DNA of 64,000 bases, taken from the IMG/VR virus record IMGVR_UViG_3300022200_000031, positions 14,848 through 78,847 of that record, one strand, 5' to 3'. Shown piece after piece: positions 31,501 through 49,552 of the stretch. The stretch's first letter is position 1. Every line of letters begins with the position of its first letter. Below the pieces are notes generated by a model. It had not been told where the DNA came from, did no database searches, and worked only from the letters and a program-made list of their open reading frames with translations. A program made the position numbers and the translations under genes. Source of the stretch: a virus.

Positions 31501-33912
31501 GATACAACTCGCCGCCCAGCAGTTGTTGTGGACCAGGAAGGTGTATACGATGCAATGCTTGGTATCATTAACGAGACTGATGCGTTGGGTACTGTATGGG
31601 GGGAATGGCAGACTAACTGGACCGGTGTAAGTATTAGTACATCTACACAAGCGTTTGGTAATGGTTCACGTCGTGGTTGGGGTAACCGTATCCAAACTAC
31701 TACTACAACCACTACTACCACAGGCCAATCACGTCAGGGTATTGAAACCTCTGTTGTACCTGATACAATCAACACCAATATTGGTGATCGTGTAGTTGAG
31801 GTCAACTTTGCACCATTCATTCGCTCTCGTCTGGTTAGCTTCAAGGCAACACGTCTGAAGCCTAACACTGAAATGTTTGCGTTCTTTGATGGTGTGGCTG
31901 TTACTCCATTTGTTCGTCAGGAATCTACATTTACAAAGTATACAGATGGAGACAATCCAACCGTAAATGGTAAGAACCTCCTTACTGCGCACCCAGATGG
32001 TGCTACAACTCTAACCACTAATGCAGCGGGTGAGTTGATTGGTTCGTTCTTCATTCCTAATAGTGACGCACTAAACTTTAAGACTGGTACACGTATCTTC
32101 CGTCTATGCGATGATCCATCAAACAATGAGGTCAATACTACAACATTTGCAGAAGCAGCGTACAATGCCAAAGGCCTGATTGAGACCAAAGAGAATGTAA
32201 CAATCTCTACTCGTGTTCCACTGATCGAGCGTCGTGAAGTTTCTGGTAACCGTATTATCAGTAACACACGCAACAACACTTCTGCATCATGGTATGATCC
32301 ACTTGCTCAATCATTCATGGTTGATTTGGATGGTGGTGCATTTATTACATCACTGGATCTGTTCTTCCACAAGAAGGCATCTGACATTCCTGTTACTGTA
32401 CAGATTCGTGAGATGAACCAGGGTCTGCCAACTCAGACTATCGTACCGTTTGGTGAGGTAACTCTGAACCCTGCTGACGTCAATGTGGTAGATCTTACCT
32501 CTTCAAATCCTGATCCTAATCAGGTGACTACATTCACATTCCCATCTCCTGTATACCTACAGCAAAACCAAGAATACTGTTTTGTTATTATGGCTAATAC
32601 AAATGAGTATGAAGTGTGGTATGCAGAGATTGGTGAGAATAACTATATTACCGGCGAGCGTATTTCTAAGCAGCCTTATGCTGGTGTATTGTTCAAATCA
32701 CAGAATGCTTCTACTTGGTCTCCTGATCAGAATAAGGATATCAAGTTCCGTATGAAGCGTGCTGACTTTAATATTGATAATCCTGGTACTGTGGTAATGA
32801 ATAACGGTTCTGTTCAGGAACGCAAACTGATTAAAAACCCATTTAGCACTACCAGCGGTTCTAGTCTGGTCCGTGTAGCACATCGTAACCATCACTTCTA
32901 TGAAGAAACCAACAGTATTCCTTCATATGTAACTATCAGTGGTGCTACAGATGTCAACGGTATCCCAGCGGCCACAATGAACGCAACCCACCAGGTTCAG
33001 GGTGTTGAGATGGATTCATACCTGATTGATGTTGGTGTGAATGCAACTGGTACTGGTATTGATGGTGGTACAGATGTTACTGTTACAGAGAACCAAGGTT
33101 TCAATACATTCTACACATTCCTGCAGCATCTGAATCTTCCTGGTACCAATTCCACATGGGGTGTTCGTACCTGTACTGGTATGAGTCTTGGTGCTACCAG
33201 CCCAACTCCATATGTGGTTGATTCCGCGTACACTCCTGTGATTGTTAATCAGAACTACACATTAGACGCACCAAAGGTAATTGCTTCAGATGACAACGAA
33301 CAGCAGGGTAAGTCATTCTACCTGAGAGGTTCACTTGTATCCACTAAGGATAATATCTCTCCTGTGATTGACCTTGAACGTGCATCCGTATATACGATTT
33401 CCAACAGAATTAATAACCCTGTGGGTGACAATCCAAGTACGACTGGTCCTTCCGATGCATTCATTGATGCACTTGGTAATGTATGGCCATCTGATAACAG
33501 CAATCCTAACAATGCACCTACAGGATTTAACTATGTTGCTGACTTCGGTACAGAAGCAACAACTGATGTTGGTTCGACTGCAGCGAAGTATGTTACTAAG
33601 GCTGTGTCGTTGGCAGAGTCTGCTGATGGCTTAAGAATCTTCTTAGATGTTAACAAGCCATCAAGAACTTATGTTGACTTGATGTATAAGGCAGTTAACG
33701 CAGAAGAAGAAATTGCAACTACTGATTGGACTCTTGCTACTCCTAGCGAACCAATTCCTTATGCGGACGACAACACCTACCGTGAGGTTGAATGGGAAAT
33801 TGATCCTCCTGGTGTGTTCAATGTATTCCAGCTTAAGATTGTTCTGAGAAGTAGTAATTCATCACAGATTCCAACCATTAAGGATCTGAGATCAATCGCA
33901 CTAGTACCATGA
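28507..33912 (+). CDS. Large virion structural protein (VrlC/DUF4815-like)
   Basis: PYYDDF, ILFRPG.AVQARELTQ, LARRTFDESGNY, RYTMRDIG.LE.RI..LEYY, DPLAQSF. Confidence 0.85.
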   Translation: MAIKFNVEPYYDDFETATAVDGLSPQEKYHRILFRPGHAVQARELTQIQSMLQHQVTSMGNHFFEEGSMVIPGHVSFEGKLDYIKLSSLSGIPQAASYPSTDEGQAQYEAAFEAFFDNQVGNVYTGGTTGITARVVKVLPAEGTDPVTMYVKYLSAGSSGETVFDDGETLTATADSTTYTAVAAASASTGFGSAAFVERGIYYLKGNFVIVQNGSLILDKYDVNPSYDVGLQITESIVDSATDPSLNDNANGTSNYAAPGAHRYQIKSELVKQAVGGTTIENFLLLIRVEEGSIAQKVRTTDYSVIEETLARRTFDESGNYTVRPFMVNVREHTDVNTPGDDAKLALGIEPSKAYVRGYEIETLSTTYVNVDKARDSTLFEAASVPMLIGNYVTIENVEGIPDIQTFERMEIHSSTGGAGGIIGYARARSYVYAGSGEYRIYLFDIQMSSGYTFAEYAKSFKLASTPEFIADIILDGSGKAIIQEPTRNTMVFPLPFNRVKTCDSQPDGVADDFNYVYFCNRYLGSSPVSSGEAVFATVGSNELLEPFDDENWILTVASGANSGDIVPLSTGSVTIATNSESVTISGLGAYEGNNVKLIAGVKRTLNQKAKSLTTSGNDNIHLFSIASPTGDDQLGFADGYKLHAVYMSANMSTPATVNDDDVSEYYDFDNGQRDNFYDLARLKLKPTTAFRPTGQLLVKYEYYTHGGGDFFTIDSYDNLEDSTGHTVSYEDIPAFVSKSTGQSIELRSAIDFRPRVSNAGNNFTGTGAQVSVCPEPLTTFTTDVQYYLNRIDKVYIDKDGNFGVVKGVPAVEPELPDDPKDAMVLYHVFVPAYTLTPEEVVIDMIDNKRYTMRDIGKLEKRINTLEYYTSLSLLEKEAADKQIVDPTTQVQRLKAGFLVDSFASHNVGNVTSPEYRCSIDRANRRLRPSFSEDNVRLLYNSTLSSNVQKTGDLITLPYTETPLFYQSQASGQINVNPFDVFSWGGTVELSPTSDEWKDTTRRPAVVVDQEGVYDAMLGIINETDALGTVWGEWQTNWTGVSISTSTQAFGNGSRRGWGNRIQTTTTTTTTTGQSRQGIETSVVPDTINTNIGDRVVEVNFAPFIRSRLVSFKATRLKPNTEMFAFFDGVAVTPFVRQESTFTKYTDGDNPTVNGKNLLTAHPDGATTLTTNAAGELIGSFFIPNSDALNFKTGTRIFRLCDDPSNNEVNTTTFAEAAYNAKGLIETKENVTISTRVPLIERREVSGNRIISNTRNNTSASWYDPLAQSFMVDLDGGAFITSLDLFFHKKASDIPVTVQIREMNQGLPTQTIVPFGEVTLNPADVNVVDLTSSNPDPNQVTTFTFPSPVYLQQNQEYCFVIMANTNEYEVWYAEIGENNYITGERISKQPYAGVLFKSQNASTWSPDQNKDIKFRMKRADFNIDNPGTVVMNNGSVQERKLIKNPFSTTSGSSLVRVAHRNHHFYEETNSIPSYVTISGATDVNGIPAATMNATHQVQGVEMDSYLIDVGVNATGTGIDGGTDVTVTENQGFNTFYTFLQHLNLPGTNSTWGVRTCTGMSLGATSPTPYVVDSAYTPVIVNQNYTLDAPKVIASDDNEQQGKSFYLRGSLVSTKDNISPVIDLERASVYTISNRINNPVGDNPSTTGPSDAFIDALGNVWPSDNSNPNNAPTGFNYVADFGTEATTDVGSTAAKYVTKAVSLAESADGLRIFLDVNKPSRTYVDLMYKAVNAEEEIATTDWTLATPSEPIPYADDNTYREVEWEIDPPGVFNVFQLKIVLRSSNSSQIPTIKDLRSIALVP

Positions 33913-34124
33913 TAGATCATAAGATGATCCCTGTTGAAGATCATCCAAATCTTTTCAGGGATCCAGTTACAAATGCGATTATAAATATGGATACAAGATC
34001 TGCTGCGTCTAACAGAAATGCTAGAATGAAAGCAAAGCAACGCGATGAGGACATTGAAAACCTCAAGAATGATATGGCAGAAATTAAAGAATTATTGACC
34101 CAACTTTTAGCGAGTAAGAACTAA
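33909..34124 (+). CDS. Conserved small coiled-coil protein
   Basis: VEDHPNLFRD..TNAIIN; typically follows VrlC-like genes. Confidence 0.75.
   Translation: MIDHKMIPVEDHPNLFRDPVTNAIINMDTRSAASNRNARMKAKQRDEDIENLKNDMAEIKELLTQLLASKN
33980..33987 (+). promoter_or_regulatory. T4 late promoter upstream of the tail fibre and modification cluster
   Basis: TATAAATA. Confidence 0.75.
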
Positions 34125-37039
34125 TGGCAATTGTTATCGTACCAAACACAGACACTTTTAACCAATGGCGTGTAAAGACAAACACCATTGGTTCAGGTGT
34201 TGGTGACCTTTCTACTCTGATCAATGATGCTGTTCTAACATATACAGGTCTTACTGGCCAGAATGAAGGAACATTCACTGGTACGCCTGCCACATTCACA
34301 ATTGTGAATAATCAGGGTACATATGAAGTAACCGTTACCAATGGTGGTGATGGATACGCAGTTGGTGATACTGTGTTGATCACCGGTGGCCAGATCGGTG
34401 GTGTTGATGGTGTAAATGATGCAACGATCACTGTTGCGACTGTTGACGCACTTGGAGTTGGTGAGGTACAGACTGCTACTGTAGCTGGTACAACCACCGC
34501 TAACCTCGTTGCACAGGTAAACAACCTTAGAGATGATGTGGGTGACACCAACACTGCACTACAAACTAATGCTGCTCAGGTACGCGATGCGATTAACGAA
34601 TTTGAAGAAGTATTGAGAGGTGCTGGTGCCAATAACTACACCCTCAACACAGATGCTGACAACTTGGTTGCTGCTATCAATGAGCTGGAAACAGCAGTTC
34701 GTGGCACTAATATAGATTACAACCTTGATACCACATCTAATGATTTGGTATCTGCAATCAATGAATTCCAAGCTGAGTTGGGTCTGGTAGAGAGTTTTGA
34801 TGCCACAGGCACTTCTCCTATTGCGGACGCTAATCACACAATTACGTACGTTAATATTGGATCGACGTTCGAGGCCGCTGTTAATGCACTGAAAGATAAA
34901 GTCGACTACCATTCAGATGAACTTGGTGGTAAGATGTCTGCAGACTATGATGGTCCTGAGACAAACCATATGGATGCGCTGAACGCATTGTACAATGCAT
35001 CTTCTCTTGGTACCTTGGATAATACATACGTTCGTCGTTCTGGTACTCTTGACATGACTGGTATGTTCCAGCTTCATCAGGATGGTATCACTTCAAACGC
35101 AAACAGCATGCTTCTGAAGACTGGTGCTGCTGATGTGACTGCTATTACAATCAGTGCAACAAATCAAAATGTTGGTATTGGCGGTGGTGTTGGCACACAG
35201 AAGTTAAAGGTTACTGGTGGTGTTAATGCTACCACTGGTTTCTATTATAATGGAGATGATACAGACACCCGTTATATCCGTGCTGATGTTGGCTCTGCAC
35301 AGACCCTTGAAATTGATACGACGGTTACTGCATCCATTAATCTCGATCCTGGTGCAGGTGAAACAGTAACAATTGATGGTTCAATTGTTGCTAGTGATAG
35401 CTATACTTTCCTTGAATGGTTCCAGGACACAGTTGGTGATATGTTTACCGGTAACCAGGAGTCTGGTGGTATCAGTGGTGTATACAATGATGGTACTGGC
35501 AAGATCACTCTTGCAATTGCAGATGATGGCCACAACCACGTCGTAAGTAATATTGATGATTTCGATAACGAAGTTAAGGATCGTGCTGCAGCAATGATCA
35601 CAGGTGCTACTCACTCTGGTCTTGCTACAACATACGATAATGTAAATAATCGCCTCACATTCAATGTCAATGACCCTGTTCTAACTATCTCTGGTGAAGC
35701 AACTGGTTCAGCCACAATGACTAACCTTAGTAACACCACTATTAGTGTTACCCTGGATCAGGAAGTCATTCAGGACAAAGCAGCACCATTACTGTCTAAT
35801 GGTGTTCATACTGGTCTGTCTGCTACTTATGATGATGCAAACAACCGTATCAATCTTGCATTGACTGCTGACCCAACTATTGCACTTTCTGGTGATGTAT
35901 CAGGTTCGGTAACCCTTACCAACCTTGGTACCCAGACATTTACAATTAATGCTGTAGTTGCTGATGATAGCCACAATCACGTTATTGGTAATATTGACAA
36001 CTTCACTGAAGAAGTACAAGACATTGTTGGTGCCATGGTTGCTCCAACAAACGTTGAATCTGGTATTACTGTAACATACGATGACAATACTGGTAAGTTG
36101 AACTTTGATGTTAATGATCCTACCATTACATTGAATGGGGATGTAACGGGTTCTGCTACAATGTCGAACCTTGGTTCAATGACCATCACTACTACTATCG
36201 TCAACGATTCACACACCCATGATGATCGTTACTATACAGAATCGGAAGCAGATAGTCGCTTCTTTAATGTGTCTGGTGACACTATCACTGGTAGCTGCAC
36301 TGTGCAGGGTGATATTTACCTGGGTTCAGGTGCTTCATCCTCGCTCCAACATTTCTGGGACAATAACAGTAGCACCTGGCGTACATTCCAATACGATCAG
36401 AGCAACTGGTATGTTGAAGATGATGGCGGCACAAACCGTCTGTTGGTTCATGCTGGTAACCTAGGTTCATTTACATTCCCATCTGCATCAAACGCGAACA
36501 CCCTTGATGGTATTGACTCCTCACAGTTCCTGCGTTCAGATGCAAATGACACTGCAACCGGTAACCTAACCACTTCTCACTTATATGCTAGATCCAATGG
36601 TGCATATGATCTTGGTACAGGTACAGTAAGATATCGTACAATGTATGCTGGTACATTTAACGGTACAGCAACCACCGCACAATACGCTGACTTGGCAGAG
36701 AAATACCTTGCTGATGGTGAATATGTTGCCGGTACTGTTATTGCGGTAGGTGGTGAAGCTGAAGTGACTGCCGCCACGGACGAAATTGCCCATTCAGTGA
36801 TTGGTGTTGTATCAGAGAATCCAGCATTCCGAATGAATGAAGATCTCGAGAATGGTACCTACATTGCACTGAAGGGACGTGTTCCTGTCCGCGTACAGGG
36901 AGATGTTAAGAAGGGGGACCGTTTGGTTGCCTCATCAACTCCAGGTGTAGCTGAAGCAAATAATGCTATGGGAATGTGGTCATTTGCTGTTGCCTTAACA
37001 GACAAAGTAGGGGATACTGTAGAAGCTGTTATTCTTTAA
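34124..37039 (+). CDS. Tail fibre protein with C-terminal intramolecular chaperone (peptidase G2/IMC-like)
   Basis: DTFNQWRVKTN anchor, internal repeats with HxH, LDGIDSSQFLRSD, ADLAEKY...IGVVS.NPA...GRVPVRV. Confidence 0.85.
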   Translation: MAIVIVPNTDTFNQWRVKTNTIGSGVGDLSTLINDAVLTYTGLTGQNEGTFTGTPATFTIVNNQGTYEVTVTNGGDGYAVGDTVLITGGQIGGVDGVNDATITVATVDALGVGEVQTATVAGTTTANLVAQVNNLRDDVGDTNTALQTNAAQVRDAINEFEEVLRGAGANNYTLNTDADNLVAAINELETAVRGTNIDYNLDTTSNDLVSAINEFQAELGLVESFDATGTSPIADANHTITYVNIGSTFEAAVNALKDKVDYHSDELGGKMSADYDGPETNHMDALNALYNASSLGTLDNTYVRRSGTLDMTGMFQLHQDGITSNANSMLLKTGAADVTAITISATNQNVGIGGGVGTQKLKVTGGVNATTGFYYNGDDTDTRYIRADVGSAQTLEIDTTVTASINLDPGAGETVTIDGSIVASDSYTFLEWFQDTVGDMFTGNQESGGISGVYNDGTGKITLAIADDGHNHVVSNIDDFDNEVKDRAAAMITGATHSGLATTYDNVNNRLTFNVNDPVLTISGEATGSATMTNLSNTTISVTLDQEVIQDKAAPLLSNGVHTGLSATYDDANNRINLALTADPTIALSGDVSGSVTLTNLGTQTFTINAVVADDSHNHVIGNIDNFTEEVQDIVGAMVAPTNVESGITVTYDDNTGKLNFDVNDPTITLNGDVTGSATMSNLGSMTITTTIVNDSHTHDDRYYTESEADSRFFNVSGDTITGSCTVQGDIYLGSGASSSLQHFWDNNSSTWRTFQYDQSNWYVEDDGGTNRLLVHAGNLGSFTFPSASNANTLDGIDSSQFLRSDANDTATGNLTTSHLYARSNGAYDLGTGTVRYRTMYAGTFNGTATTAQYADLAEKYLADGEYVAGTVIAVGGEAEVTAATDEIAHSVIGVVSENPAFRMNEDLENGTYIALKGRVPVRVQGDVKKGDRLVASSTPGVAEANNAMGMWSFAVALTDKVGDTVEAVIL

Positions 37040-37048
37040 GGAGCTTCT

Positions 37049-37798
37049 ATGATTGGTATTGTTGGTTATGGATTTGTGGGTAAGGCTGTCGAATACGGCT
37101 TTAGCAAAACAGATCATTTTATTGTCGACCCCCTACATTTTCCAGAACACTCTCTAGCTGATCTAGTTGAGCACAATCCCGAAGCGATCTTTGTGTGTGT
37201 TCCTACTGATGATGGGGATCAGTTTGCTACATTAACTGATACTCTTGATCAGATTGCAGGTCTAGGCTACAAGGGTATTGTAGTAGTCAAATCTACTGTT
37301 CTTCCAAAGTACCTTGAGGGGTACAATGTTGTCTACAATCCTGAGTTTCTTTCTCGCCGTACTGCATTTGAAGATTTTGTAAAACCACACGTCTTAGTGA
37401 TTGGTGGCCAGCAATCTAAAGCAAAGCGTGTATTGGAAATGTATATGAACTACTCTGATGTTCGTTGTGATAACATCTTCCTCACTTCAGTTAATGCTGC
37501 CTCAATGGTTAAATATATGTTCAACACATACTATGCAACCAAACTAACCTTCATGAATCAGATGTATGATGTGGCGCAGCAGGCTGGTGTACATTGGAAT
37601 GATATCAAACAGATTCTTGGAAAACATCCATGGGTAGGAACATATCATCTTGATGTCCCTGGTTATGAGGGGCGAGGTTTTAGTGGTCCATGTCTTCCCA
37701 AGGATACAAAAGCCCTTGCTGCTGAATATGATGTTGAATTGCTACATAAGGTGTTGGAGTTAAACGACAAATACCGAGATGAAAACTCTACTAGTTGA
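37049..37798 (+). CDS. UDP-glucose/GDP-mannose dehydrogenase family protein (short form)
   Basis: GYGFVG, KST, NPEFL and GFSGPCLPKD motifs. Confidence 0.9.
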   Translation: MIGIVGYGFVGKAVEYGFSKTDHFIVDPLHFPEHSLADLVEHNPEAIFVCVPTDDGDQFATLTDTLDQIAGLGYKGIVVVKSTVLPKYLEGYNVVYNPEFLSRRTAFEDFVKPHVLVIGGQQSKAKRVLEMYMNYSDVRCDNIFLTSVNAASMVKYMFNTYYATKLTFMNQMYDVAQQAGVHWNDIKQILGKHPWVGTYHLDVPGYEGRGFSGPCLPKDTKALAAEYDVELLHKVLELNDKYRDENSTS

Positions 37799-38783
37799 AC
37801 TTTCAGAACAATGCAATCTCGATTGCTCGTACTGTGGTGTAAACAAAAGATCAAAACAGAAAGTAAATCTTGATCATGTTCTCGAGCAGTATAGTCTCCT
37901 GCGTTCAAAATACCCCGACGAGAAAATAAAGATAGACTTCTTCGGTGGTGAACCTTTGTTGCAGCTTGATAGAATTAAGTCTATTATTGAGGCTACAGAG
38001 AACGACCCCAATCTTGAATATTTTATGCCAACTAATGGTCTTGTTTTAACACAAGAAATGGCGGATTATCTGATATCAAAGAATGTAAGAATGTCACTAT
38101 CGTTTGATGGACTCTGGCAGGACGACAACCGAAAGCAATTATCCGGTAACGGCACTCTCACCAAGTATATGGCAAAGAGTGATCTATTTAAGTCTCTCCC
38201 ACTAGAATGTCATACTATGATCACTAGGGGAAACTATAATCTTCTTGAAAACCACCTTTTTATCCAGGACTTAATCGGAAAAAATTCCGATCAAACGCTT
38301 GTCCGTGACAGAAATATATGGGATAATGACAGTGTAGATAAACTAAAGGCTGGTATCACTGAGTTGTTTGAGTGGTATAAAAGACATCCAGAAAAAGAGA
38401 TGCCGGGGTTGATTAAACATTACCTTAGCCATATAGTAAGGTATAAGTATAAGAAGGTAGAGCTGAATACCTGTGGTGCTGGTGAGAAGATGATCACCGT
38501 TGCAGACGAAGACAAGGTTCTTCCCTGCGGTAGGTTTAGAAACGAACCAGACACTATTGCTAGTATTCCTATCTACACAAAAATGTCTGAGTGTGAGACA
38601 TGCGAAGTGAGACACTACTGTAAGAAGGGGTGTCTGTATGAACAGATACACAACGGTGGACCTATTAAGGAGCTGTGTGACATCTACAAGCATATCTACT
38701 CAGAAGAATTTAATATGATCAAACAGTTGAAGAATGATCAGCACTTTGTAGGTGTATTGAAAAAGGAAATTATGGATGCTTGA
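37779..38783 (+). CDS. Radical SAM/SPASM protein 1
   Basis: CNLDCSYC, FFGGEPLL, SFDG; C-terminal C...PC...CETC...CKKGC...C. Confidence 0.92.
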   Translation: MKTLLVELSEQCNLDCSYCGVNKRSKQKVNLDHVLEQYSLLRSKYPDEKIKIDFFGGEPLLQLDRIKSIIEATENDPNLEYFMPTNGLVLTQEMADYLISKNVRMSLSFDGLWQDDNRKQLSGNGTLTKYMAKSDLFKSLPLECHTMITRGNYNLLENHLFIQDLIGKNSDQTLVRDRNIWDNDSVDKLKAGITELFEWYKRHPEKEMPGLIKHYLSHIVRYKYKKVELNTCGAGEKMITVADEDKVLPCGRFRNEPDTIASIPIYTKMSECETCEVRHYCKKGCLYEQIHNGGPIKELCDIYKHIYSEEFNMIKQLKNDQHFVGVLKKEIMDA

Positions 38784-38994
38784 TGATAAAGACAAAGCGA
38801 ATGCATCGTTGTTTAATGCTGCTGCCCATCTAACAGAGGCAGCAAAGTATATGTCTGACATGGATAAGGGGATCTCACTAAAGATCTTTGCCATGGCAGA
38901 TAAGATCCTTTCCATTATTGATGCCCCCCAACCAAAGTTATCAAATAAAGAACTGGATGATATTCTGGAGGAGATTCTAAATGCAGAAGACTAG
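38776..38994 (+). CDS. Small helical hypothetical protein
   Basis: 72 aa, overlap-coupled between the two SPASM genes. Confidence 0.65.
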   Translation: MLDDKDKANASLFNAAAHLTEAAKYMSDMDKGISLKIFAMADKILSIIDAPQPKLSNKELDDILEEILNAED

Positions 38995-40117
38995 AGGACC
39001 GCTGGTAATTGAGCTGACTACCAGTGCATTATGTGATCTGAATTGCACATATTGCTTTGAGGGTGAGAAGGTTAACAAGCAGAGGCTTGAGGACTTTGAC
39101 ACACTGTATGCTAGGATTGATGAACTAACTAGTGACCCATGGTTTAAAGAAAACTACAATGGATTCACATTCTCATTTTGGGGCGGTGAACCGACACTTA
39201 ACCACGAGTATATTGTCAAAGTAATCAATCACTTCAAGGACCATCCTGCAGTAGGTCAGTTTCATATCTACACCAATGGTTTCAACTTCAAGAATATGAG
39301 TCGAATTATTGATAATGTAGACACAACCAAACTGCATATTCAAGTTTCATATGACGGTCAAATTACTAATGATATTTTCAGATTGACGAACAAAGGAACC
39401 TCCACAACTGAACAAGTACTAAATACCTTTGACAAATTGGCCAAAAGAGGTATTGATCTTGCAATAAAGAGTACACTACCCACTACTTCTATTTTTAGTC
39501 TGTATGATACATGGCTAGAATTTGAAGGTTTGGTTAATAAATATAAGGATTACCCAAACGTAAAAATTAACTTTGCGCCAACGATTGAGTATGCTATGGG
39601 ACACACACCATTTGGTGGGGAAACGGATCATGCAGTTGCAAAGTTTGAAAAGCAGATGAAAAAGATCGCCAAAAAGGAGATCGAATTCTACAAGGAGCAT
39701 GGAAGGTTCTTGTGCTCATGGTTTGGTAGCTCTGATAGTAAGACAAACTGTACTGCTGGAGCTAGTATGATGGCAGTAGATGTGGACGGTGGAGTGTATG
39801 CTTGCCATGGTGCTCTCTACTCTCCTCAGAAGGAAGACATGAAATCAGCAACGATTTTCGATAATGATTTCACTGTTAAGGTAAAAGACTTTGCGGACAA
39901 GCATGTTCCTGCAAGGCATAGGATTAATGACATCTGTAAGGGATGTGTTGCAACATACTGTGCTGTATGCCCTGTTGCGGTATATGACGCAAGTAAGAAG
40001 GTTGACCATCTAGATAGATGGACAGATAGATGTGTGAATGGGTTGTGTAAGTTCTATAAGGCGTTTGGGCGATTAGATAGAGCTGTACAGCACCATATAA
40101 ACAACTTGGAGAAGTGA
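38981..40117 (+). CDS. Radical SAM/SPASM protein 2
   Basis: CDLNCTYC, FWGGEP, SYDG; CTAG...YACH...CKGC...CAVCP...C. Confidence 0.92.
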   Translation: MQKTRGPLVIELTTSALCDLNCTYCFEGEKVNKQRLEDFDTLYARIDELTSDPWFKENYNGFTFSFWGGEPTLNHEYIVKVINHFKDHPAVGQFHIYTNGFNFKNMSRIIDNVDTTKLHIQVSYDGQITNDIFRLTNKGTSTTEQVLNTFDKLAKRGIDLAIKSTLPTTSIFSLYDTWLEFEGLVNKYKDYPNVKINFAPTIEYAMGHTPFGGETDHAVAKFEKQMKKIAKKEIEFYKEHGRFLCSWFGSSDSKTNCTAGASMMAVDVDGGVYACHGALYSPQKEDMKSATIFDNDFTVKVKDFADKHVPARHRINDICKGCVATYCAVCPVAVYDASKKVDHLDRWTDRCVNGLCKFYKAFGRLDRAVQHHINNLEK

Positions 40118-40118
40118 T

Positions 40119-40805
40119 ATGACAGTAGGTGTAGTTGACGCTGGTGATAATTGTACAGCAGCACATTGTATCAATCATGGTACAGGTACCACCACGTGTG
40201 TTGAACACCGCAGTACATGCTCAACCAACCGTGCATTGACATTCTCTGACTTTGCTCAGGGTGGCAACATTACTGCTACCCAGGTAGAGGAAATGAGAGT
40301 CAAGATTCGTGATGAGTTGGCTAGATACAACCTTCATGCTAACTACAACTACACATTGTACCAGCCAACAGCTATTGGTGCTGGTGGTATTGTGGATGAC
40401 ACTCACTATAACAACCTGAATGATATGATCCGTCAGGCCTACGGTTCCGATATCAATAAGGCTGCGGGTCAGCTGATTGATGATGCAGATTGGGATAACT
40501 TGATCTCATACTATAATGTGGTTCGCCAAAACTGCATCTGTAACACCGACTGCTCATGTAATAATGTGTGTGCGTGCCACAATGATTGTGATTGTAACTA
40601 CAGCGATGAAAGACTGAAGGAGAATATTAAGTATCTTGGTCTGGTAAGTGATCTGAAAGTGTACAGCTTCAATTATATCTGGAACAAAGCAGAAGAGATG
40701 ATTGGTGTGATGGCTCAGGATCTCATTGGTACCAAGTATGAGGATGCTCTTCGTAAAGACATTAACGGATACTACATGGTAGATTATAGTAGGTTGCCAC
40801 TCTAA
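40119..40805 (+). CDS. Cys-rich protein with C-terminal peptidase S74 autocleaving chaperone; candidate substrate of the cluster
   Basis: CICNTDCSCNNVCACHNDCDCNY followed by SDERLKENI...YSFNY...GVMAQD...GYYMVDYS. Confidence 0.85.
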   Translation: MTVGVVDAGDNCTAAHCINHGTGTTTCVEHRSTCSTNRALTFSDFAQGGNITATQVEEMRVKIRDELARYNLHANYNYTLYQPTAIGAGGIVDDTHYNNLNDMIRQAYGSDINKAAGQLIDDADWDNLISYYNVVRQNCICNTDCSCNNVCACHNDCDCNYSDERLKENIKYLGLVSDLKVYSFNYIWNKAEEMIGVMAQDLIGTKYEDALRKDINGYYMVDYSRLPL

Positions 40806-41551
40806 TGGAAAAGACAATTACTAAAATCAATGAGGTTCTGTCTGAAAAGTTTGACAGAGGTATCTCAATCAGAGTCACCAACACTCTCAGTATTCCTCCA
40901 ATGGATGATGATAGTCAGTTCTCCATTAAATTTAAGTTTACTGTAAATGGTGCTGGGTACCGTGGATGGTATCTATCCAACACCGATCGTGCTGAGATAA
41001 ATGAATTTGTGTATGACACCCTGCACGATGATGTGTTTGTTCTGCCTAATCTAGTGGACTTTGATGGTAAGTGTTATGCCTTGGTTGGTGATGGTATGAT
41101 TACTGTTGAGCGTGAAACTAAGGTTCTTATGACCAACGATGTAGCGCCATCCTCAATTGTAGAGCTGCATGAAATGCTTGAGGACATTGATGTGTCGTCT
41201 ATTGATATGTCGGATGTATATGACAGACAGGTTGGTTACAACTTCAGTGATGAAGAATGTATGCTGATGTATACCAACATCCCTGGTAATGTTCTCAGTG
41301 ATGGTAGCGGTCGTTATACACTAATTGACTTAGATGTATTTAATATTCTCCCAACGCGTTTCAAATATTGTCCTGCATTCTCTCTTCTATGTGATAGGAT
41401 TGGTTTTAAGCAGTCTCGCCTTGAGGGATTCTGCGATAAGTATAATCTGGACCCTGAGATGTTCCTTTCCAACTACAAGCAGTTTCTTCAATTTGAGAAG
41501 GACATGGGTTCTGATGATGAAAAAATGATGGAGATTTTAACGGAGAAATAA
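40805..41551 (+). CDS. Hypothetical protein
   Basis: 248 aa, TAATG-coupled to the S74 gene. Confidence 0.7.
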   Translation: MEKTITKINEVLSEKFDRGISIRVTNTLSIPPMDDDSQFSIKFKFTVNGAGYRGWYLSNTDRAEINEFVYDTLHDDVFVLPNLVDFDGKCYALVGDGMITVERETKVLMTNDVAPSSIVELHEMLEDIDVSSIDMSDVYDRQVGYNFSDEECMLMYTNIPGNVLSDGSGRYTLIDLDVFNILPTRFKYCPAFSLLCDRIGFKQSRLEGFCDKYNLDPEMFLSNYKQFLQFEKDMGSDDEKMMEILTEK

Positions 41552-41553
41552 TT

Positions 41554-42156
41554 ATGATGGTATATGATTTAGCTATTGTGGAGGACCATGGTCACCACTA
41601 TAGAGTGATTGGTACAACAAAGAATACATTAGACCGTATGGCCGGTGAAGACTATATTAAAGTGTCATCGATGGCGTATGAAATGATTTGGCCTGCATTG
41701 CGAGATGGTAAGGAAGTAAGACTTCCTAAGGTTCTCCATACCAATGAAGTACTTCCCGGTGAAGTACAAATTATCGAACATAGTCCTGATGATGCAGATG
41801 CAGCACGCACTGCAGCACTGATCAAGGTACGCTCGCTTGTTGTCCCAGAGATGACTAAAGAGTCAGGATTCACTCTTTATAACTTCATGATGATGAATAA
41901 TGAGTTGGCAAGTGAAGGATACTTCATTACTAATAATAATCGTGAAGAAAAGTACATTGAGATCATCGAAACAGGCAATGAAAGGCTAATTGAAACCCTT
42001 GAGATGTACCTAGAAGCTAAGGATACCCTTGACCGGGCGGCCTCAATGAAAGTTCGGTTGGATAAGTTCCGTAAAGAAATCGGCCGAATGGATGCTGTAG
42101 ATGATATTAAGACGGCTACCGACAATTTCTTGGCTACATTCTATACCTCAAAGTAA
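41554..42156 (+). CDS. Hypothetical protein
   Basis: 200 aa, GGAG SD; helical C-terminal half. Confidence 0.7.
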   Translation: MMVYDLAIVEDHGHHYRVIGTTKNTLDRMAGEDYIKVSSMAYEMIWPALRDGKEVRLPKVLHTNEVLPGEVQIIEHSPDDADAARTAALIKVRSLVVPEMTKESGFTLYNFMMMNNELASEGYFITNNNREEKYIEIIETGNERLIETLEMYLEAKDTLDRAASMKVRLDKFRKEIGRMDAVDDIKTATDNFLATFYTSK

Positions 42157-42161
42157 TATGA

Positions 42162-42977
42162 ATGTCCGCTGTTGTATATCACTCAAACGATCATAAGAAG
42201 ATCAATGGTACTCTCTTCTATTGTTTTGAGTACTATGTACTGCTAAAAAGATACATTCCAGGCCTGCAGTATATCCTTCTCAATACTTCCGATGAAGATC
42301 TTCAATGGATGAAATCTATCTTTATTGAGAAGTATAACTTTGATCATGCTTATCTTAATGACATCACTAACCTAACAAGGCTTACAGATTTTGTTAGGTT
42401 GTCGGTTGATAATGTTCTAATCCTTGATATTCATACTTATAGTAGAGTAAAGGACTTTCTCGGAAAGGCTCGATCAGTTCGTGTGTATAGTAATGAGGAG
42501 CACAACTACCTGAACGCTAAACCCCATCATGTGTTCTATGGGTTCTACGACTATCAGACATTCAATAAAAAAACTAGAATCAAATTATATGCTGACATAC
42601 ACAAGAGGTTTCCTAATAAAAGAAACAAAGTGTTTGTTACGTCATTAAATGCAGACAATGATTATATTGTCAATCAGTTAGGATTAGATCCATCGAAGGT
42701 ATTTGTAAAAAATCTAAACAGTCACAATGAGAATATGTATGAACAGGTTGGTGAGATGATCTACTGGCATAGTTCACATACAGATACAAATAACCGAGCA
42801 ATAGTGGAGGCATACATCCATGATATTCCTCTGACCATACACTTCAATGGACACTATCATGATAGCATCTATGAGAGATCTAACACCATTGCTAATGGTG
42901 GTTTGCAGGAAATGTTTCTTGATCAGTCTGATATACTAATACAGGACTTCATTAATGATTGTACAAATACCAAGTAA
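42162..42977 (+). CDS. Hypothetical protein, possible glycosyltransferase-like fold
   Basis: NGTLFYCFEYY...EKYNF; C-terminal NRAIVEAY; paralogous to the next gene. Confidence 0.55.
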   Translation: MSAVVYHSNDHKKINGTLFYCFEYYVLLKRYIPGLQYILLNTSDEDLQWMKSIFIEKYNFDHAYLNDITNLTRLTDFVRLSVDNVLILDIHTYSRVKDFLGKARSVRVYSNEEHNYLNAKPHHVFYGFYDYQTFNKKTRIKLYADIHKRFPNKRNKVFVTSLNADNDYIVNQLGLDPSKVFVKNLNSHNENMYEQVGEMIYWHSSHTDTNNRAIVEAYIHDIPLTIHFNGHYHDSIYERSNTIANGGLQEMFLDQSDILIQDFINDCTNTK

Positions 42978-43854
42978 GTATGAGCTCTGCCTAACCTACT
43001 CTTGGGGTCCTATCGATCAGGGTATGTGTGGACACATATTTGAGTGTATTGAATACTACTTCATTCTGAAAGAACATTACAGTGTGTGTATATTCATTCC
43101 TGAGCCACTCAGCAAGAAGTTCATAGAGGATACTGTTAGGGACAAGTATGATTTCACAGAAGAGGAAACAACGGACCTTTTCGATAATACTATCTTTGGC
43201 AATCATCCTAAGATTCTGAAGGGAAGTAATGTACTGTTAACGGATGCTGGGTTTGGAAAGATGACTAACAGACATCTATTGTTTGATAACATCATGGCTT
43301 TTCCATGCGCCGATATGTCATTCAAACAAATGGAAGGTATTACTGTATTCCAGGATGACCGCATGTATGGTACGGATGCCAAATGCACAACCCATCACTA
43401 TGTAAAAAAGATTCTACTAGATCGTTATAAGACAATTGGTGATAGTGTTATTGATACTAACCTTGTATATGCTACTAAGAATGCAAGAGGGCTTGATGAG
43501 TCCATCTACACAGAGTTGGAGCAGTACCCAGGAAACTTTCTGCTGTTGACTAATACAGAGATTAAGGGTATACTATCCGATCGTTATACACAGGAAGAGA
43601 TGCCTGTGAAGAATCTATTTGAGAAGTTTAGTACATACATCTATACTCCTGTAGGAAAGAAGTATGATTGCAGTCCTAGATTCTTGGTAGAATGCAAGCA
43701 CTATGGTAAAAATGTTATATTCCATAACATTGACTATTGGGATGTTGATCATGGTTTGAAGTGGAGAGTCTATGACATCGAGTACGATTATGATTCACTA
43801 CTTCTTAGATCGGATGATAGTATCATAGAATTAATAGGAGACATCATTGGATAA
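42955..43854 (+). CDS. Hypothetical protein, possible glycosyltransferase-like fold
   Basis: CGHIFECIEYY...DKYDF; C-terminal DCSPRFLVECKHYGK. Confidence 0.55.
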   Translation: MIVQIPSKYELCLTYSWGPIDQGMCGHIFECIEYYFILKEHYSVCIFIPEPLSKKFIEDTVRDKYDFTEEETTDLFDNTIFGNHPKILKGSNVLLTDAGFGKMTNRHLLFDNIMAFPCADMSFKQMEGITVFQDDRMYGTDAKCTTHHYVKKILLDRYKTIGDSVIDTNLVYATKNARGLDESIYTELEQYPGNFLLLTNTEIKGILSDRYTQEEMPVKNLFEKFSTYIYTPVGKKYDCSPRFLVECKHYGKNVIFHNIDYWDVDHGLKWRVYDIEYDYDSLLLRSDDSIIELIGDIIG

Positions 43855-44449
43855 TTATTGTCTCACTGTAACATATAAATGTCAGTGGCATTGCCCATAC
43901 TGCATTACTGATACACACTCTAAGAGTATAGAGTATGATCAGGTACTAGACAACATTAAAAGGATACCCGATCGTGCTCATGTCTCCCTTAGTGGCGGAG
44001 AACCTGGTATGTTACCAACAGGAAAGATCATAGAGGTTATTAATAGACTGCGTGAGAAGCAATGTGTGGTACAGGTTAATAGCAATGGGTTGATTTTTAA
44101 AAGACCCGCTATTGTTGATATGGTGGACTTCATCTTCTACCATTGCAGTGAGAACCTGGATATTGATGATGAGGTTGTAAAGGATTACCCTGATAAGACT
44201 CAGTACATGGTAGTTGTAACAGACAACAACATTGATAAACTCAGATCATTTTTGGATAAGCATAATGATATTCATATATCAATTTATGCAGCTAAAGAGG
44301 TCCCTGTCAATGGTAAGGTTGGCGAACATCTCAGTAAAAAGAACGCTATCAGACTCGTGCGTGAGTTTAAGGATTACATCAAACCAGATGAGGTTCCACA
44401 CATCCTAAATTTCAATGAGTATACTTTGCAGACAGAACACATTAAATGA
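43847..44449 (+). CDS. Short radical SAM protein 3
   Basis: CQWHCPYC, SGGEP, NSNG; TTG start after AGGAG. Confidence 0.88.
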   Translation: MDNYCLTVTYKCQWHCPYCITDTHSKSIEYDQVLDNIKRIPDRAHVSLSGGEPGMLPTGKIIEVINRLREKQCVVQVNSNGLIFKRPAIVDMVDFIFYHCSENLDIDDEVVKDYPDKTQYMVVVTDNNIDKLRSFLDKHNDIHISIYAAKEVPVNGKVGEHLSKKNAIRLVREFKDYIKPDEVPHILNFNEYTLQTEHIK

Positions 44450-45450
44450 TTAATAATTATACATTTCCTTTAATTGATAAAGATGAACCTATATGTCAGC
44501 GCGCTAAACTTGACACAGGGACTTTCTGTAATTATGAGTGTTCTTTTTGTTACTATATTGATCGCCTGCATGAGAAGACAGATCTGGATGTGGTAAAACA
44601 GCGTGTGGATTATATCTATGAATGTGGTATCCGCGAAGTAGATCTTAGTGGGGGTGAATCTTCTGTCCGTACTGATTGGTTTGAGCTGCTGGACTATTGT
44701 AAGTCAAAGGAAATGTCAGTCAGTACGGTGACTAACGGATACAAGTTTGCTGACCATGATTTTATGAAAAAGTCAAAGGAGCATGGATTGCAGGAGATTC
44801 TGTTTAGTGTACATGGGCCCAATAATGACATCCATGATCTTGTAGTTGGAAGAAAAGGAGCATTTAAGCGAATCATTAAAGCAATTGAGAATGCCCATGA
44901 TCTAGGAATACTGGTTCGTATCAATTATGTTGTTAATCAACATAGCTACAGTCTAACAGATGAGTTTGTGTGCATGGTTGATCAGGTGAAGCCATATGAA
45001 CTGAACTTTCTCACACTAAACTTCTTTGGTTCCGCTAACGAGTATCTACCATACAAACTGTCTACTACTCATATCAAACACTGCATTGATATTGTTGACG
45101 TTCCTATTATTAATGTAAGGTATGTACCATATTGCTATATGGAAGGGTACGAGAAGTATGTCTGCAACACGTTCCAGCATATCTATGACAGATACGATTG
45201 GAATATGGCAGTGTATGATCAAAGAATAGATCCGGAAGTGTATAAAAAAGATCCTCTGGATGCATTATATAAGCAAGCGCAGGAAGACCGTAAGCGCATG
45301 TACTATAAACCAGAACAATGCAAGGGATGTAAGCATCTCCTAATATGTGATGGGTTGGAGAATGTAGTTCATGATGATGTAATGCCAACAGAAGGACCAG
45401 TGGTGAAGGAGATCAATCACTACAGGAAGGAATACTATGCCAAAGTATAG
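44446..45450 (+). CDS. Radical SAM protein 4 with C-terminal CxxC-x4-CDG
   Basis: CNYECSFC, SGGE, TNG, FSVHG; PYC...CKGCKHLLICDG. Confidence 0.9.
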   Translation: MINNYTFPLIDKDEPICQRAKLDTGTFCNYECSFCYYIDRLHEKTDLDVVKQRVDYIYECGIREVDLSGGESSVRTDWFELLDYCKSKEMSVSTVTNGYKFADHDFMKKSKEHGLQEILFSVHGPNNDIHDLVVGRKGAFKRIIKAIENAHDLGILVRINYVVNQHSYSLTDEFVCMVDQVKPYELNFLTLNFFGSANEYLPYKLSTTHIKHCIDIVDVPIINVRYVPYCYMEGYEKYVCNTFQHIYDRYDWNMAVYDQRIDPEVYKKDPLDALYKQAQEDRKRMYYKPEQCKGCKHLLICDGLENVVHDDVMPTEGPVVKEINHYRKEYYAKV

Positions 45451-46063
45451 TATTCTAATTCCCACTCATAATAGACCTGAACTGTTTCAGAGATGTATTG
45501 CCAGTGTACAGAGAGGTATGCTTGGTGCTGACTACGAGATTATAGTTAATAATGATTCACGAGATATTGAGGAAGTAGAAAGATATAACATTAAGTACTA
45601 CTACATGCGCAATGATAATCTTGGTATGATATACAAGTTTCTATTTGATAGAGCAAACGGTGAGTATGTGTACTACATGGAAGATGATGATATTATGGAT
45701 CCAAACTTCTATGAGCGCATTAAGTTATTCAACGAGGATATTATGTTTGGCAACTATGTTCCTTTTGAATGGAATAAGTCATTCATTGAGTATATGAGAT
45801 CAAGACCACAATCATCAAAGGAAGATTTCCTGGAAACATTTGATCCACACCATTTCCAACTGTGCCAGATTATGTTTCGGAAATCTGCATTGGCAGACGC
45901 TGATTTTCCTACCGACAACAACCTACAGAATGATTTCCTTTTATTTGAGAGACTGCAGGGTTCGTTTAGAGTAGTAAACAACTTCTTCTATAAACAAACA
46001 ATTGATGGTGGTGATAATATTAGCTTCAGCTACCTCAATAAGGATCCAAGATGGACTTCATAA
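45437..46063 (+). CDS. GT2-family glycosyltransferase
   Basis: SILIPTHNR, EIIVNND, GEYVYYMEDDD. Confidence 0.88.
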   Translation: MPKYSILIPTHNRPELFQRCIASVQRGMLGADYEIIVNNDSRDIEEVERYNIKYYYMRNDNLGMIYKFLFDRANGEYVYYMEDDDIMDPNFYERIKLFNEDIMFGNYVPFEWNKSFIEYMRSRPQSSKEDFLETFDPHHFQLCQIMFRKSALADADFPTDNNLQNDFLLFERLQGSFRVVNNFFYKQTIDGGDNISFSYLNKDPRWTS

Positions 46064-46971
46064 AGGTATCTGGTGTAGATCATTATGAACAGAGATTGTA
46101 TGTTCATTGGGATGTAACTACTATTTGTGAGTACAAATGTTCCTACTGTTATGCTCGCAAACAATACAAGGATCAATGGAATCGTCCTGGAAACTGGGAG
46201 GATCACAAATACATTATTGACGAGTTGAGTAAGAGTACACTCCCTGTGTTTCTTGGTCTCCTTGGTGGAGAACCAACATCCCATCAGAGATACTTTACTT
46301 TACTTGATATGATTAATGAGAAAGTACTAACTCATCCAGACTCCAGAATGTATATTACAACCAATGGAGCCAAGAGTACAGAGTTCTTTGATAAGCATAA
46401 GACATCTAACGGTAAAACTTATTTCCTTTGGAGTCTCCACCCTGAGTATGCAGACTTCGATACATTCTATAACAATGTTCAATTGATGAACAGCAAAGGA
46501 TACAAAACAAAGATAAATTTGATGCTTCATCCTGGCAAAAGATACTGGGAAAGACAAAAGGAATGGTATTATCAGCTATCGGAGCTCCACTATGCTATAC
46601 TACATCCTCATTTCATCTATCATGGGTTTGATAAGGATGTGAAGTATACAGATGAATTCTTTGAGGAGTTTAACTTCCTACAGGATCAGAGAATAAAGGA
46701 ATTTGTGTTTGAGGATAGTGTAGGAGAGAGTTATATACTTTCCGACTATGAGATATTCAAGGGTGGGCATAACCAGTTCAAGGGCTGGCAGTGTTGGCAT
46801 AATAATTTCGAGATTAGGAATGATGGGTTGATATCCGATCAATGTTTTGATAGGCAGGGTAGACAAATCACAAAGGACTTCTTTAAGAATATTACAGAGA
46901 TCGTACCCAGAGTATGTCCACACAACTATTGTAGCTGTGATGGCCTAATGAAGATTAGGAAAGAAAAATGA
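46051..46971 (+). CDS. Radical SAM protein 5 (twitch-like C-terminus)
   Basis: CEYKCSYC, LGGEPT, TNG, SLHPE; FKGWQC...C...CPHNYCSC. Confidence 0.9.
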   Translation: MDFIKVSGVDHYEQRLYVHWDVTTICEYKCSYCYARKQYKDQWNRPGNWEDHKYIIDELSKSTLPVFLGLLGGEPTSHQRYFTLLDMINEKVLTHPDSRMYITTNGAKSTEFFDKHKTSNGKTYFLWSLHPEYADFDTFYNNVQLMNSKGYKTKINLMLHPGKRYWERQKEWYYQLSELHYAILHPHFIYHGFDKDVKYTDEFFEEFNFLQDQRIKEFVFEDSVGESYILSDYEIFKGGHNQFKGWQCWHNNFEIRNDGLISDQCFDRQGRQITKDFFKNITEIVPRVCPHNYCSCDGLMKIRKEK

Positions 46972-47861
46972 AAATAATGAATGCTACACGTGAGTACGAT
47001 GTCCACATCTGTTACGATATTACACTAGCATGCAACAATAGATGTGAGTACTGCTACTGCCTGGATGACCTTGACAATAAGAAGAAATGGAATGAGGAAA
47101 CATTCCAACTATTCAAACAGGAACTTGCTAAGCTAACAGATTATAGGGTTCGTGTGTCTCTTGTGGGTGGAGAACCCCTAGTAATACATGACAAACTACA
47201 TCGTGTTAAAGAATTACCAATTAGTAGCCTGCAGATCATTAGTAATCTCAACTTCCCCGAAAGAAACTTTGAAAAGATCCTGACCAATGTAGTGGATGTA
47301 AATCCCAACCTACTTGCTGTGTCATGGCACCCATCCTCCAAACTGGATGATGTTAGAAGGAATATCCTGAAGGCAAAAGAGGCTGGTTTAAATGTAGTGA
47401 TATCATATCTACTTGATCAGGATAACCTGGATGAGATCTGGGAGGAGGCACATTGGGCATTGAATAATGAAATCTGGTTTGTTGTAGACATCATACATAC
47501 TAATGGGGAAGATAGATTTAAGGATAAACGAAACGCCAAGTATGTTAAACTACTCCATCTATCCCAGAGACTGCCCGTAGATCTGCAGATCATTGATCCA
47601 CTAACAGTTACTATTGATGAAAGCATCTACGATCAGGTTGATATGATGCTGCTGGATATGAAAGACATCTCTAAGCGATACTACACACAATGTAAACACA
47701 CTGCATTGGATGTACATTATGATGGTAGCTATGATGTACAATGTAGTCATCCATACTCAGGTCATCTGAAGGATGGACTTGAGATCAGAAGCGTGTTTTG
47801 TGACAATCACACATGCGATAAAAATGTTACAACTTATAAGAGACTACTAAGACGTAAATGA
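46968..47861 (+). CDS. Radical SAM protein 6
   Basis: CNNRCEYC, VGGEPL, SWH; C-terminal Cys set. Confidence 0.9.
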   Translation: MKIMNATREYDVHICYDITLACNNRCEYCYCLDDLDNKKKWNEETFQLFKQELAKLTDYRVRVSLVGGEPLVIHDKLHRVKELPISSLQIISNLNFPERNFEKILTNVVDVNPNLLAVSWHPSSKLDDVRRNILKAKEAGLNVVISYLLDQDNLDEIWEEAHWALNNEIWFVVDIIHTNGEDRFKDKRNAKYVKLLHLSQRLPVDLQIIDPLTVTIDESIYDQVDMMLLDMKDISKRYYTQCKHTALDVHYDGSYDVQCSHPYSGHLKDGLEIRSVFCDNHTCDKNVTTYKRLLRRK

Positions 47862-49545: not shown

Positions 49546-49552
49546 GTAAGAT

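Follow-up and report, generated by a model that had tools for sequence, protein, structure and literature searches.

The subject of this analysis is P0001, a viral protein of 228 amino acids in which an array of Cys residues is followed by a C-terminal Peptidase_S74 (S74) domain. It is encoded in a 64,000-nucleotide (nt) stretch of DNA, positions 14,848 to 78,847 of the IMG/VR record IMGVR_UViG_3300022200_000031. This whole stretch is called the window, and coordinates given without a locus number are window positions. Two genes for radical S-adenosylmethionine (SAM) enzymes with a SPASM domain, rSAM1 and rSAM2, lie upstream of the P0001 gene. The array is the predicted C-terminus of the mature protein and a candidate substrate of both enzymes. 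The features on which this proposal is built are as follows.

37779..38783, + strand: rSAM1, a radical SAM enzyme with CX3CX2C and a SPASM set (CX2CX5CX3C plus a final Cys); Pfam Radical_SAM, expect value (E) 2.6e-14
38981..40117, + strand: rSAM2, a radical SAM/SPASM enzyme with its stop codon 1 nt short of the array gene; Pfam, NCBIfam and synteny
40119..40805, + strand: P0001, the Cys-array/S74 protein, 228 amino acids with 12 Cys; open reading frame (ORF) translation, Pfam and alignment
40152..40232, + strand: N-terminal Cys motif of P0001, C12, C17, C27 and C34; alignment, disordered in the model
40275..40529, + strand: helical middle, with helices at residues 53-70, 94-108 and 122-137; AlphaFold2 monomer, predicted local distance difference test score (pLDDT) about 90
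40533..40601, + strand: Cys array CICNTD-CSCNNV-CACHND-CDCNY, four CxC hexads, residues 139-161; invariance in homologues
40602..40802, + strand: minimal Peptidase_S74 intramolecular chaperone of 67 amino acids with a Ser162/Lys167 dyad in SDERLK; Pfam, fold and invariance

The first-pass annotation of this DNA had described an ORF of 228 amino acids with four N-terminal Cys, a helical middle, an eight-Cys array and then SDERLK, and this layout was borne out. Single-sequence scans of viral contigs with P0001 and rSAM2 returned nothing, and alignment profiles were needed to find relatives. Across 60 homologues with 38-78% identity, the eight array Cys were invariant, as were N142, D144, N148, Y161, S162, D163, L166 and K167. 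No DNA tandem repeat was found under the array; hence its conservation points to selection at the protein level. Judged by the sequence, the array is not a chance feature. In the AlphaFold2 monomer, pLDDT was below 50 for both Cys-rich stretches (residues 1-32 and 141-159), and the modelled disorder of the array is as would be expected for an enzyme-accessible core. The last helix of the middle part (W125...Y132...R136) abuts the array, and a PDB fold search with the helical middle of the model gave no match. In the N-terminal motif, C27 and R31 were invariant in the homologue alignment and H30, C34 and N37 were conserved at 90% or more; the motif is missing from the subfamily with heptad arrays and may serve for a second modification or for metal binding. 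When P0001 was searched by tblastn against cultured phages, matches confined to the S74 domain were obtained in Brucella phages and Microcystis phage Mae-JY35. The protein of the latter has no Cys array and is therefore not a family member.

Both enzymes matched Pfam Radical_SAM and Fer4_12, and both carry CX3CX2C together with a seven-Cys SPASM set; the invariant Cys of rSAM2 are C18/C22/C25 and C257, C275, C319, C322, C327, C330 and C356. The best NCBIfam family of rSAM1 was PapB (NF047865; E 1e-32, 113.7 bits against a cut-off of 340), with QhpD second (3e-24). For rSAM2, PapB (1e-24, 87.4 bits against the same cut-off of 340) was followed by the CXXX-repeat maturase (2e-17) and anSME (3e-13), and the SCIFF maturase was also among the best families of the two enzymes. 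Because PapB scored best and its equivalog cut-off was missed by both, the enzymes are relatives of PapB and not members. The best PDB match of rSAM1 was CteB (5WGG, 1e-15), aligned from CteB residue 97, and rSAM2 matched CteB with 1e-6. The alignments begin at CteB residue ~97-103 and at positions 80-110 of family models that bear a RiPP (ribosomally synthesised and post-translationally modified peptide) recognition element (RRE); accordingly, the enzymes are read as having no N-terminal RRE. TIGR04463, the CrpC family, was outside the 25 best NCBIfam families listed for rSAM1 or rSAM2.

Fused, split and absent S74 domains

The assignment of the C-terminal domain to S74, with Ser162/Lys167 as its dyad, had been made before any database search and was confirmed by a Pfam match above the gathering score, by invariant residues and by the fold. 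PF13884 matched residues 162-203 with 31.8 bits (cut-off 22; E 1.7e-7), and phrog_6121 matched residues 160-226. Residues 162-228 were modelled with a pLDDT of 86-96, and S74 proteins in BFVD superposed on them with a root-mean-square deviation of 1.3-2.0 Å over 65-72 residues. A phmmer search of the PDB with the 67-residue domain alone gave chance matches only.

Subsequently, the mature part (residues 1-161) was searched by phmmer against 1.84 billion representatives. The resulting 105 clusters at 50% identity, all of the hexad type, were sorted by what comes after the last array Cys.

41 of 105 clusters: protein end at most 6 residues after the array, mostly exactly at ...C-x-C-[N/H]-Y
33 of 105 clusters: a 12-residue stub, SDxRLKxxIxY[C/L]
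19 of 105 clusters: a full S74 domain
6 of 105 clusters: another tail
6 of 105 clusters: a degenerate array

The first-pass annotation had placed the mature end of P0001 at ...CNY161, and this position is supported by the 41 clusters without S74, which naturally stop at C-x-C-[N/H]-Y. Since these natural C-termini coincide with the predicted product, they are the best evidence that P0001 is cut before Ser162. The cut is thus a prediction from comparison with relatives, as is the placement of the array at the extreme C-terminus.

In the split forms, the array ORF stops 12 residues after the Ser of S74, and the remainder of S74 is a separate small ORF downstream. Each S74-body ORF has a start and a ribosome site of its own, in frame -1, +1 or 0 relative to the array ORF. 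Among the starts seen were a TAATG overlap (behind AGGAG), a TTG within the conserved TAT-TGT-TAA (behind AAGGAG) and an ATG located a few bases past the stop. Programmed frameshifting was considered for the stub forms and rejected: with starts and ribosome sites of their own and in varying frames, the downstream ORFs point to split genes. By their gene layout, the stub forms are a naturally split intramolecular chaperone. Such an arrangement was seen at L127:4510-4870, L128, L105:4440-4800, L116:2365-2725 and L040:6700-7060 (L numbers denote the related loci collected here), and further at L151, L048:6620-7060, L050, L053 and L037. At a few stub loci, the cassette gene u200 (described below) came directly after the stub and no S74-body ORF was seen.

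The S74 domain had also been proposed to act as a self-removing follower. Coupling of substrate and enzymes does not depend on it, as the same enzymes accompany the S74-less and the split-S74 forms. The S74 domain is accordingly regarded as an optional, detachable folding chaperone and the array as the partner of the enzymes. Larger array-ending proteins of 716, 672 and 529 amino acids gave no Pfam or PHROG match that indicated a fibre body.

Compared with the S74 chaperones of the endosialidase K1F tailspike and the L-shaped T5 fibre pb1, the P0001 domain is alike in its C-terminal position, in the Ser-x4-Lys dyad at the domain start and in its fold. It differs in being very short (67 amino acids) and lacking a C-terminal coiled coil, and it is preceded by a 23-residue Cys array instead of a triple beta-helix or coiled coil. 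Furthermore, relatives of P0001 often have no S74 or have it divided into the 12-residue stub and a separate ORF. The series of fused, split and absent domains offers a handle on the evolution of intramolecular chaperones.

Linkage of Cys arrays with radical SAM genes

The gene neighbourhoods were examined in both directions. With a profile of 24 array homologues, an rSAM2 homologue was found directly upstream of the array gene in 18 of 18 IMG/VR loci; nearly all of these also had an rSAM1 homologue, and downstream were u200 and usually u271, u299 and rSAM4. A second profile gave 62 metagenome loci. Those with at least 1 kb of upstream DNA were counted, and 48 of these 49 had an rSAM2 homologue upstream. 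The same held for both of two Halobacteriovorax chromosomes. For the reverse direction, a profile of ten rSAM2 homologues gave 67 viral loci, 41 of them with a full-length match at 25-49% identity. A Cys-array ORF started 12-103 nt downstream of the enzyme gene in 36 of the 41, and four more had one at most 5 kb upstream. Overall, 40 of 41 had a Cys-array gene within 5 kb, the sole exception being one short contig.

The arrays beside the rSAM2 family were of several types: hexads (CxCNxD), heptads (CxCNCNY, 3 to >10 copies) and tetrads (CHSN). Since the enzyme family stands beside such widely differing arrays, its partner appears to be the array itself; the linkage survives both the change of array type and the loss or splitting of S74. 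As the number of heptads varies so widely while the unit stays constant, array length seems to evolve fast. By this linkage, rSAM2 is the partner most tightly tied to Cys arrays. The connection to SPASM enzymes drawn in the first-pass annotation is thus supported by the counts in both directions. That annotation had named the regular occurrence of homologues without radical SAM neighbours as evidence that would speak against it; no such pattern was found, and the link was not refuted.

Two array genes stood in tandem behind the enzyme gene in some phages (L038:6128-7272, L039:6129-7277 and L062:7248-8470). The Halobacteriovorax cassette (L088:5573-16543, L089) has the order rSAM1-rSAM2-array-u200-u271-u299-rSAM4, together with four more radical SAM genes. 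Its array protein has 183 amino acids and ends in CGCHY, and the cassette has no S74 and no fibre gene upstream. The island lies directly after chorismate synthase (aroC) and an aroB/aroA fusion.

The adjacency itself could have a trivial cause. P0001 might be an ordinary small fibre or whisker protein whose Cys are free or loosely disulfide-bonded, and the radical SAM genes might be its neighbours only through a shared hypervariable host-recognition island. The host-recognition islands of T4-like aquatic phages are indeed mosaic, and radical SAM cassettes are gained and lost in them (PMC7029224). The pairing persists at 25-30% enzyme identity while its surroundings change, and its genomic settings are unrelated, from Campylobacter phages and a bacterial chromosome to freshwater and marine contigs. 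We consider an ordinary fibre protein with accidental neighbours very improbable.

Possible chemistry and location of the array protein

We propose that P0001 is made as the precursor of a small fibre-type phage protein. Its C-terminal S74 domain would trimerise it and then cut itself off before Ser162, which would leave a 161-residue protein ending in the eight-Cys array ...CDCNY. Before or during folding, the unstructured array would be modified by the two upstream SPASM radical SAM enzymes. The Cys thiols would most likely be turned into thioether (ranthionine-type) bridges, for which the Asn and Asp residues at Cys+3 are the best acceptor candidates. The outcome would be a covalently stapled C-terminal tip, which in a trimer would bring 24 Cys together, and the mature protein would probably be a minor component of the virion, in association with the tail fibre encoded nearby. 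To this explanation as a whole, from the precursor with its SPASM-modified array and self-removing S74 to the stapled, fibre-associated tip, we assign a probability of roughly 0.55. The claim that phages covalently staple the tip of a virion fibre, with the array converted to thioethers by two SPASM enzymes and the tip folded by a fused, split or absent S74, is offered tentatively, at odds slightly short of even.

Thioether formation at the array is suggested by the nearest enzyme families and by the residues that follow the Cys. Of the eight array Cys of P0001, six are followed by N, D or H at position +3. When 101 distinct arrays were compared, N, D, Q or E was found at Cys+3 for 60-65% of the Cys in the hexad, heptad and other classes, and no other offset was consistently high. 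The P0001 array thereby has the composition of ranthipeptide- and Crp-like substrates, namely a Cys-rich core with acceptor-type residues at a fixed distance. As the array sequences are related and periodic, this pattern is supportive and not decisive.

Several points weigh against the stapling proposal. The Cys+3 pattern could equally be a structural Asn ladder. The chemistry proposed for the family is read from sequence. Because the enzymes score far below the NCBIfam cut-offs, the type of reaction is guessed from the closest families, and oxidation of the anSME type or some other Cys chemistry may take place instead. Seven further radical SAM genes, a GT2 glycosyltransferase gene and a UDP-glucose dehydrogenase-like gene belong to the cassette as well. 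As for a role in the virion, the evidence is one low-coverage match in a distant relative that shares only the array (described below), and the bacterial cassette beside aro genes, which has no fibre gene upstream, indicates that a virion role is not obligatory.

The tail-fibre gene upstream of the cassette also bears on the chemistry.

34124..37039, + strand: tail-fibre protein of 971 amino acids with HxH motifs; PHROG tail-fibre matches and synteny

This fibre has three D-[GS]-H-x-H motifs, and its C-terminal residues 790-939 match two PHROG families. We take the motifs to be of the kind that binds iron in the T4 gp37 tip. In T4 gp37 and gp12, HxH metal-ligand doublets occur at regular spacing near the trimeric tip, and those of gp37 hold iron. 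The T4 ligands differ from the P0001 array in being His and in having no dedicated modifying enzyme, and the periodicity of the array varies (6, 7, 4) among the relatives of P0001.

This likeness raises the possibility that the Cys hold a metal or an Fe-S cluster on the trimer axis, or lock a mini beta-helix by disulfides after lysis, while the radical SAM enzymes act elsewhere, on sugars or on another protein. CxC is a classic thiolate ligand, and the adjacent fibre uses HxH. The hexad spacing would suit a repeating solenoid, and the Cys region of CrpA, a Cys-repeat protein of Methanococcus voltae, has been modelled as a beta-helix (PMC13692751). The GT2 and UDP-glucose dehydrogenase-like genes give the cluster the appearance of sugar chemistry, to which the weak BlsE and MoaA matches of rSAM4 add. 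Against this, a metal site or disulfides would need no dedicated enzyme, yet the rSAM2 family stands beside arrays in 40 of 41 loci; hexad, heptad and tetrad periodicities are hard to fit to one metal geometry; and rSAM1 and rSAM2 resemble peptide maturases rather than sugar-acting twitch enzymes. Metal binding or disulfide locking is therefore regarded as unlikely.

Known thioether systems resemble the proposed stapling in part. CrpA carries C-X-X-Q/D motifs, and ranthionine links installed in it by a SPASM enzyme were demonstrated by mass spectrometry (PMC13692751, 2026). CrpC/CrpA and the phage system have in common a SPASM enzyme gene beside the gene for a Cys-repeat protein and motifs of the C-x-x-D/Q type. 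CrpC differs in carrying an RRE and in its family, TIGR04463; CrpA is built from 17-residue repeats and lacks S74; and the pair is archaeal and cellular, not viral. PapB/PapA (freyrasin) and CteB/SCIFF provide the best family (NF047865) and the best structure (5WGG) for both phage enzymes, and their substrates likewise have a Cys-rich core with Asp or Asn near each Cys. The phage enzymes differ in lying far below the equivalog cut-offs and in having no N-terminal RRE. Their candidate substrate is a protein of 161-228 amino acids with a folded helical part, and its release would be by a fused autoprotease or would be unneeded. QhpD, the second-best family of rSAM1, installs Cys-to-Asp/Glu thioethers in a protein subunit, QhpC (the gamma subunit of quinohemoprotein amine dehydrogenase), which stays in a larger assembly and is matured with a separate subtilisin-like protease. 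QhpC differs from P0001 in serving periplasmic catalysis and in having no repeat array.

Evidence on the location of array proteins came from cultured relatives. The Campylobacter group II phages CP220, CPt10, CP21 and IBB_35 encode a heptad-array protein of 534 amino acids, with seven CxCNCNY heptads mid-protein and then a Cys-rich tail of scattered CxC[ND]x[ND] units. An rSAM2 homologue (29% identity, E 1e-42) is encoded 2.2 kb from its gene. In IBB_35, gene 3-9 (1605 nt, 60,318 Da) is among 38 virion proteins identified by electrospray ionisation tandem mass spectrometry, with 2.6% coverage (PMC3322345, Tables S1 and S2), and the mass of the IBB_35 534-residue protein computed here is 60,317 Da. 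Although thin, this match is an experimental one. The gene corresponds to L096:4933-6537 in CP220 (gp140) and to L097:4501-6105 in IBB_35 (gene 3-9). Its heptads are annotated only as DNA 'repetitive regions', and the label N-acetylneuraminate pyruvate lyase, given to the protein in some records, is unsupported by our reading of the sequence.

The virion match bears on another explanation, in which the array protein is not structural and instead serves as precursor or scaffold for a modified peptide, a cofactor or a metallophore, released from the helical carrier. The product would then be that of the whole cluster, with nine radical SAM enzymes and a glycosyltransferase. The cluster is indeed large and biosynthetic in look, and in Halobacteriovorax a complete cassette lies near aromatic amino-acid genes with no fibre gene upstream. 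The C-terminal Tyr, invariant in the array, recalls C-terminal cores such as that of mycofactocin. On the other side, the phage cassette usually follows a tail-fibre gene, probably on the same late transcript, a distant array protein was found in virions, and the core cassette showed no recognisable gene for a protease or exporter. To our knowledge, S74 domains occur in trimeric fibres, spikes and MYRF and not in natural-product precursors. A released product is accordingly considered quite unlikely.

Earlier studies reported radical SAM genes in Campylobacter phages and pelagimyophage host-recognition islands and proposed no target for them (PMC3322345; PMC7029224). Our literature searches found no paper that links phage radical SAM genes to Cys arrays or S74. 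What is new here is the series of fused, split and absent S74 domains with a shared C-terminus, the anatomy of the split genes, the Cys+3 rule and the virion-proteome match. Radical SAM thioether stapling is known to us from short antimicrobial peptides and very few proteins (QhpC; CrpA, 2026). If the stapling proposal is correct, phages and at least one predatory bacterium apply this chemistry to a structural, probably host-contacting protein. P0001 would then be the first enzymatically radical-cross-linked viral structural protein and would represent a large hidden class of RiPP-like protein maturation. It would also explain the 'numerous radical SAM genes' noted since 2010 in T4-like aquatic and Campylobacter phages. 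The pairing itself is widespread: besides 105 hexad clusters there are heptad and other arrays, and the carriers include freshwater, marine and Campylobacter phages. The system is directly testable, as three small genes would have to be expressed together and there are cultured carriers in the Firehammervirus phages of Campylobacter.

Transcription, neighbouring genes and source phage

Two late-promoter-type octamers were considered for the cassette.

33980..33987, + strand: the T4-type late promoter octamer TATAAATA in its exact form, 144 nt ahead of the fibre gene; octamer scan
40096..40103, + strand: TATAAACA, a late-promoter-like octamer with one mismatch, inside rSAM2; octamer scan

P0001 had been assigned a near-consensus late promoter. 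The octamer TATAAACA does sit at 40096-40103, but it is not distinctive, since the + strand has it four times and one-mismatch variants 40 times. The exact octamer TATAAATA occurs at ten sites, mostly just 5' of gene starts, and none lies between 33980 and 55083. From 34124 to 54565, the gaps between genes range from -68 to +9 nt. The P0001 start lies 1 nt past the rSAM2 stop behind a GGAGAAG ribosome site, which makes co-transcription and translational coupling likelier than a promoter of its own. One long late transcript from 33980 that carries the whole cluster is likely from this arrangement. A scan of 33800-45600 for sigma-70 promoters and terminators gave nothing above shuffles at gene borders.

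The remaining cassette features are as follows.

38776..38994, + strand: s72, an acidic protein of 72 amino acids between rSAM1 and rSAM2; homologues in at least 10 loci
40805..41551, + strand: u248, 248 amino acids, no assigned family; ORF between the array gene and u200
41554..42156, + strand: u200, 200 amino acids, an N-terminal beta domain and long C-terminal helices; AlphaFold2, pLDDT 90.9
42162..45450, + strand: u271, u299, rSAM3 and rSAM4, which are conserved and form the downstream part of the cassette; synteny and family searches

The s72 gene is kept in hexad-type cassettes; its product looks helical by eye from its composition and gave no Pfam, NCBIfam or PHROG match, which speaks neither for nor against a discrete RRE. 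The same three collections gave no match for u248, and neither the 18 viral loci seeded with the array nor the loci L020-L060 seeded with the enzyme had a u248 homologue. In these loci, u200 usually comes directly after the array gene. In most loci, even at 21-30% identity, the gene behind the array gene is u200; this holds for the most divergent loci and for the bacterial island too, and u200 is probably the fourth core component of the cassette. It matched no known family, and its fold search gave nothing convincing: the helical matches were generic (Z up to 8.8) and a lead to a tail-assembly chaperone was weak (TM 0.29-0.38), so that neither was relied on.

Downstream of P0001, seven further radical SAM genes with a GT2 glycosyltransferase gene among them were found, and the cluster extends to ~54.5 kb. 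The seven genes and the GT2 gene, together with other genes of no assigned function, continue the operon across window positions 43847-51308. In related loci, rSAM3-type paralogues number from 1 to 5. The matches of rSAM4 to BlsE- and MoaA-type families were weak and came from NCBIfam.

The record behind the window is 78.8 kb long and ~46% complete, the window covering 64 kb of it. It represents a T4-like myovirus with genes for gp5-, gp6- and wedge-type baseplate proteins and five tRNAs. Its gp6 homologue is ~42% identical to that of Methylophilales phage Melnitz and 38-40% identical to those of Pelagibacter myophages. A megablast search of window positions 37000-46000 against cultured phages gave no match, and no RNA run was among the public runs listed as holding window DNA. 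A homologue of the 971-residue fibre was found upstream of the cassette in many related phage loci by synteny, and the window DNA was detected in freshwater metagenomes of several studies.

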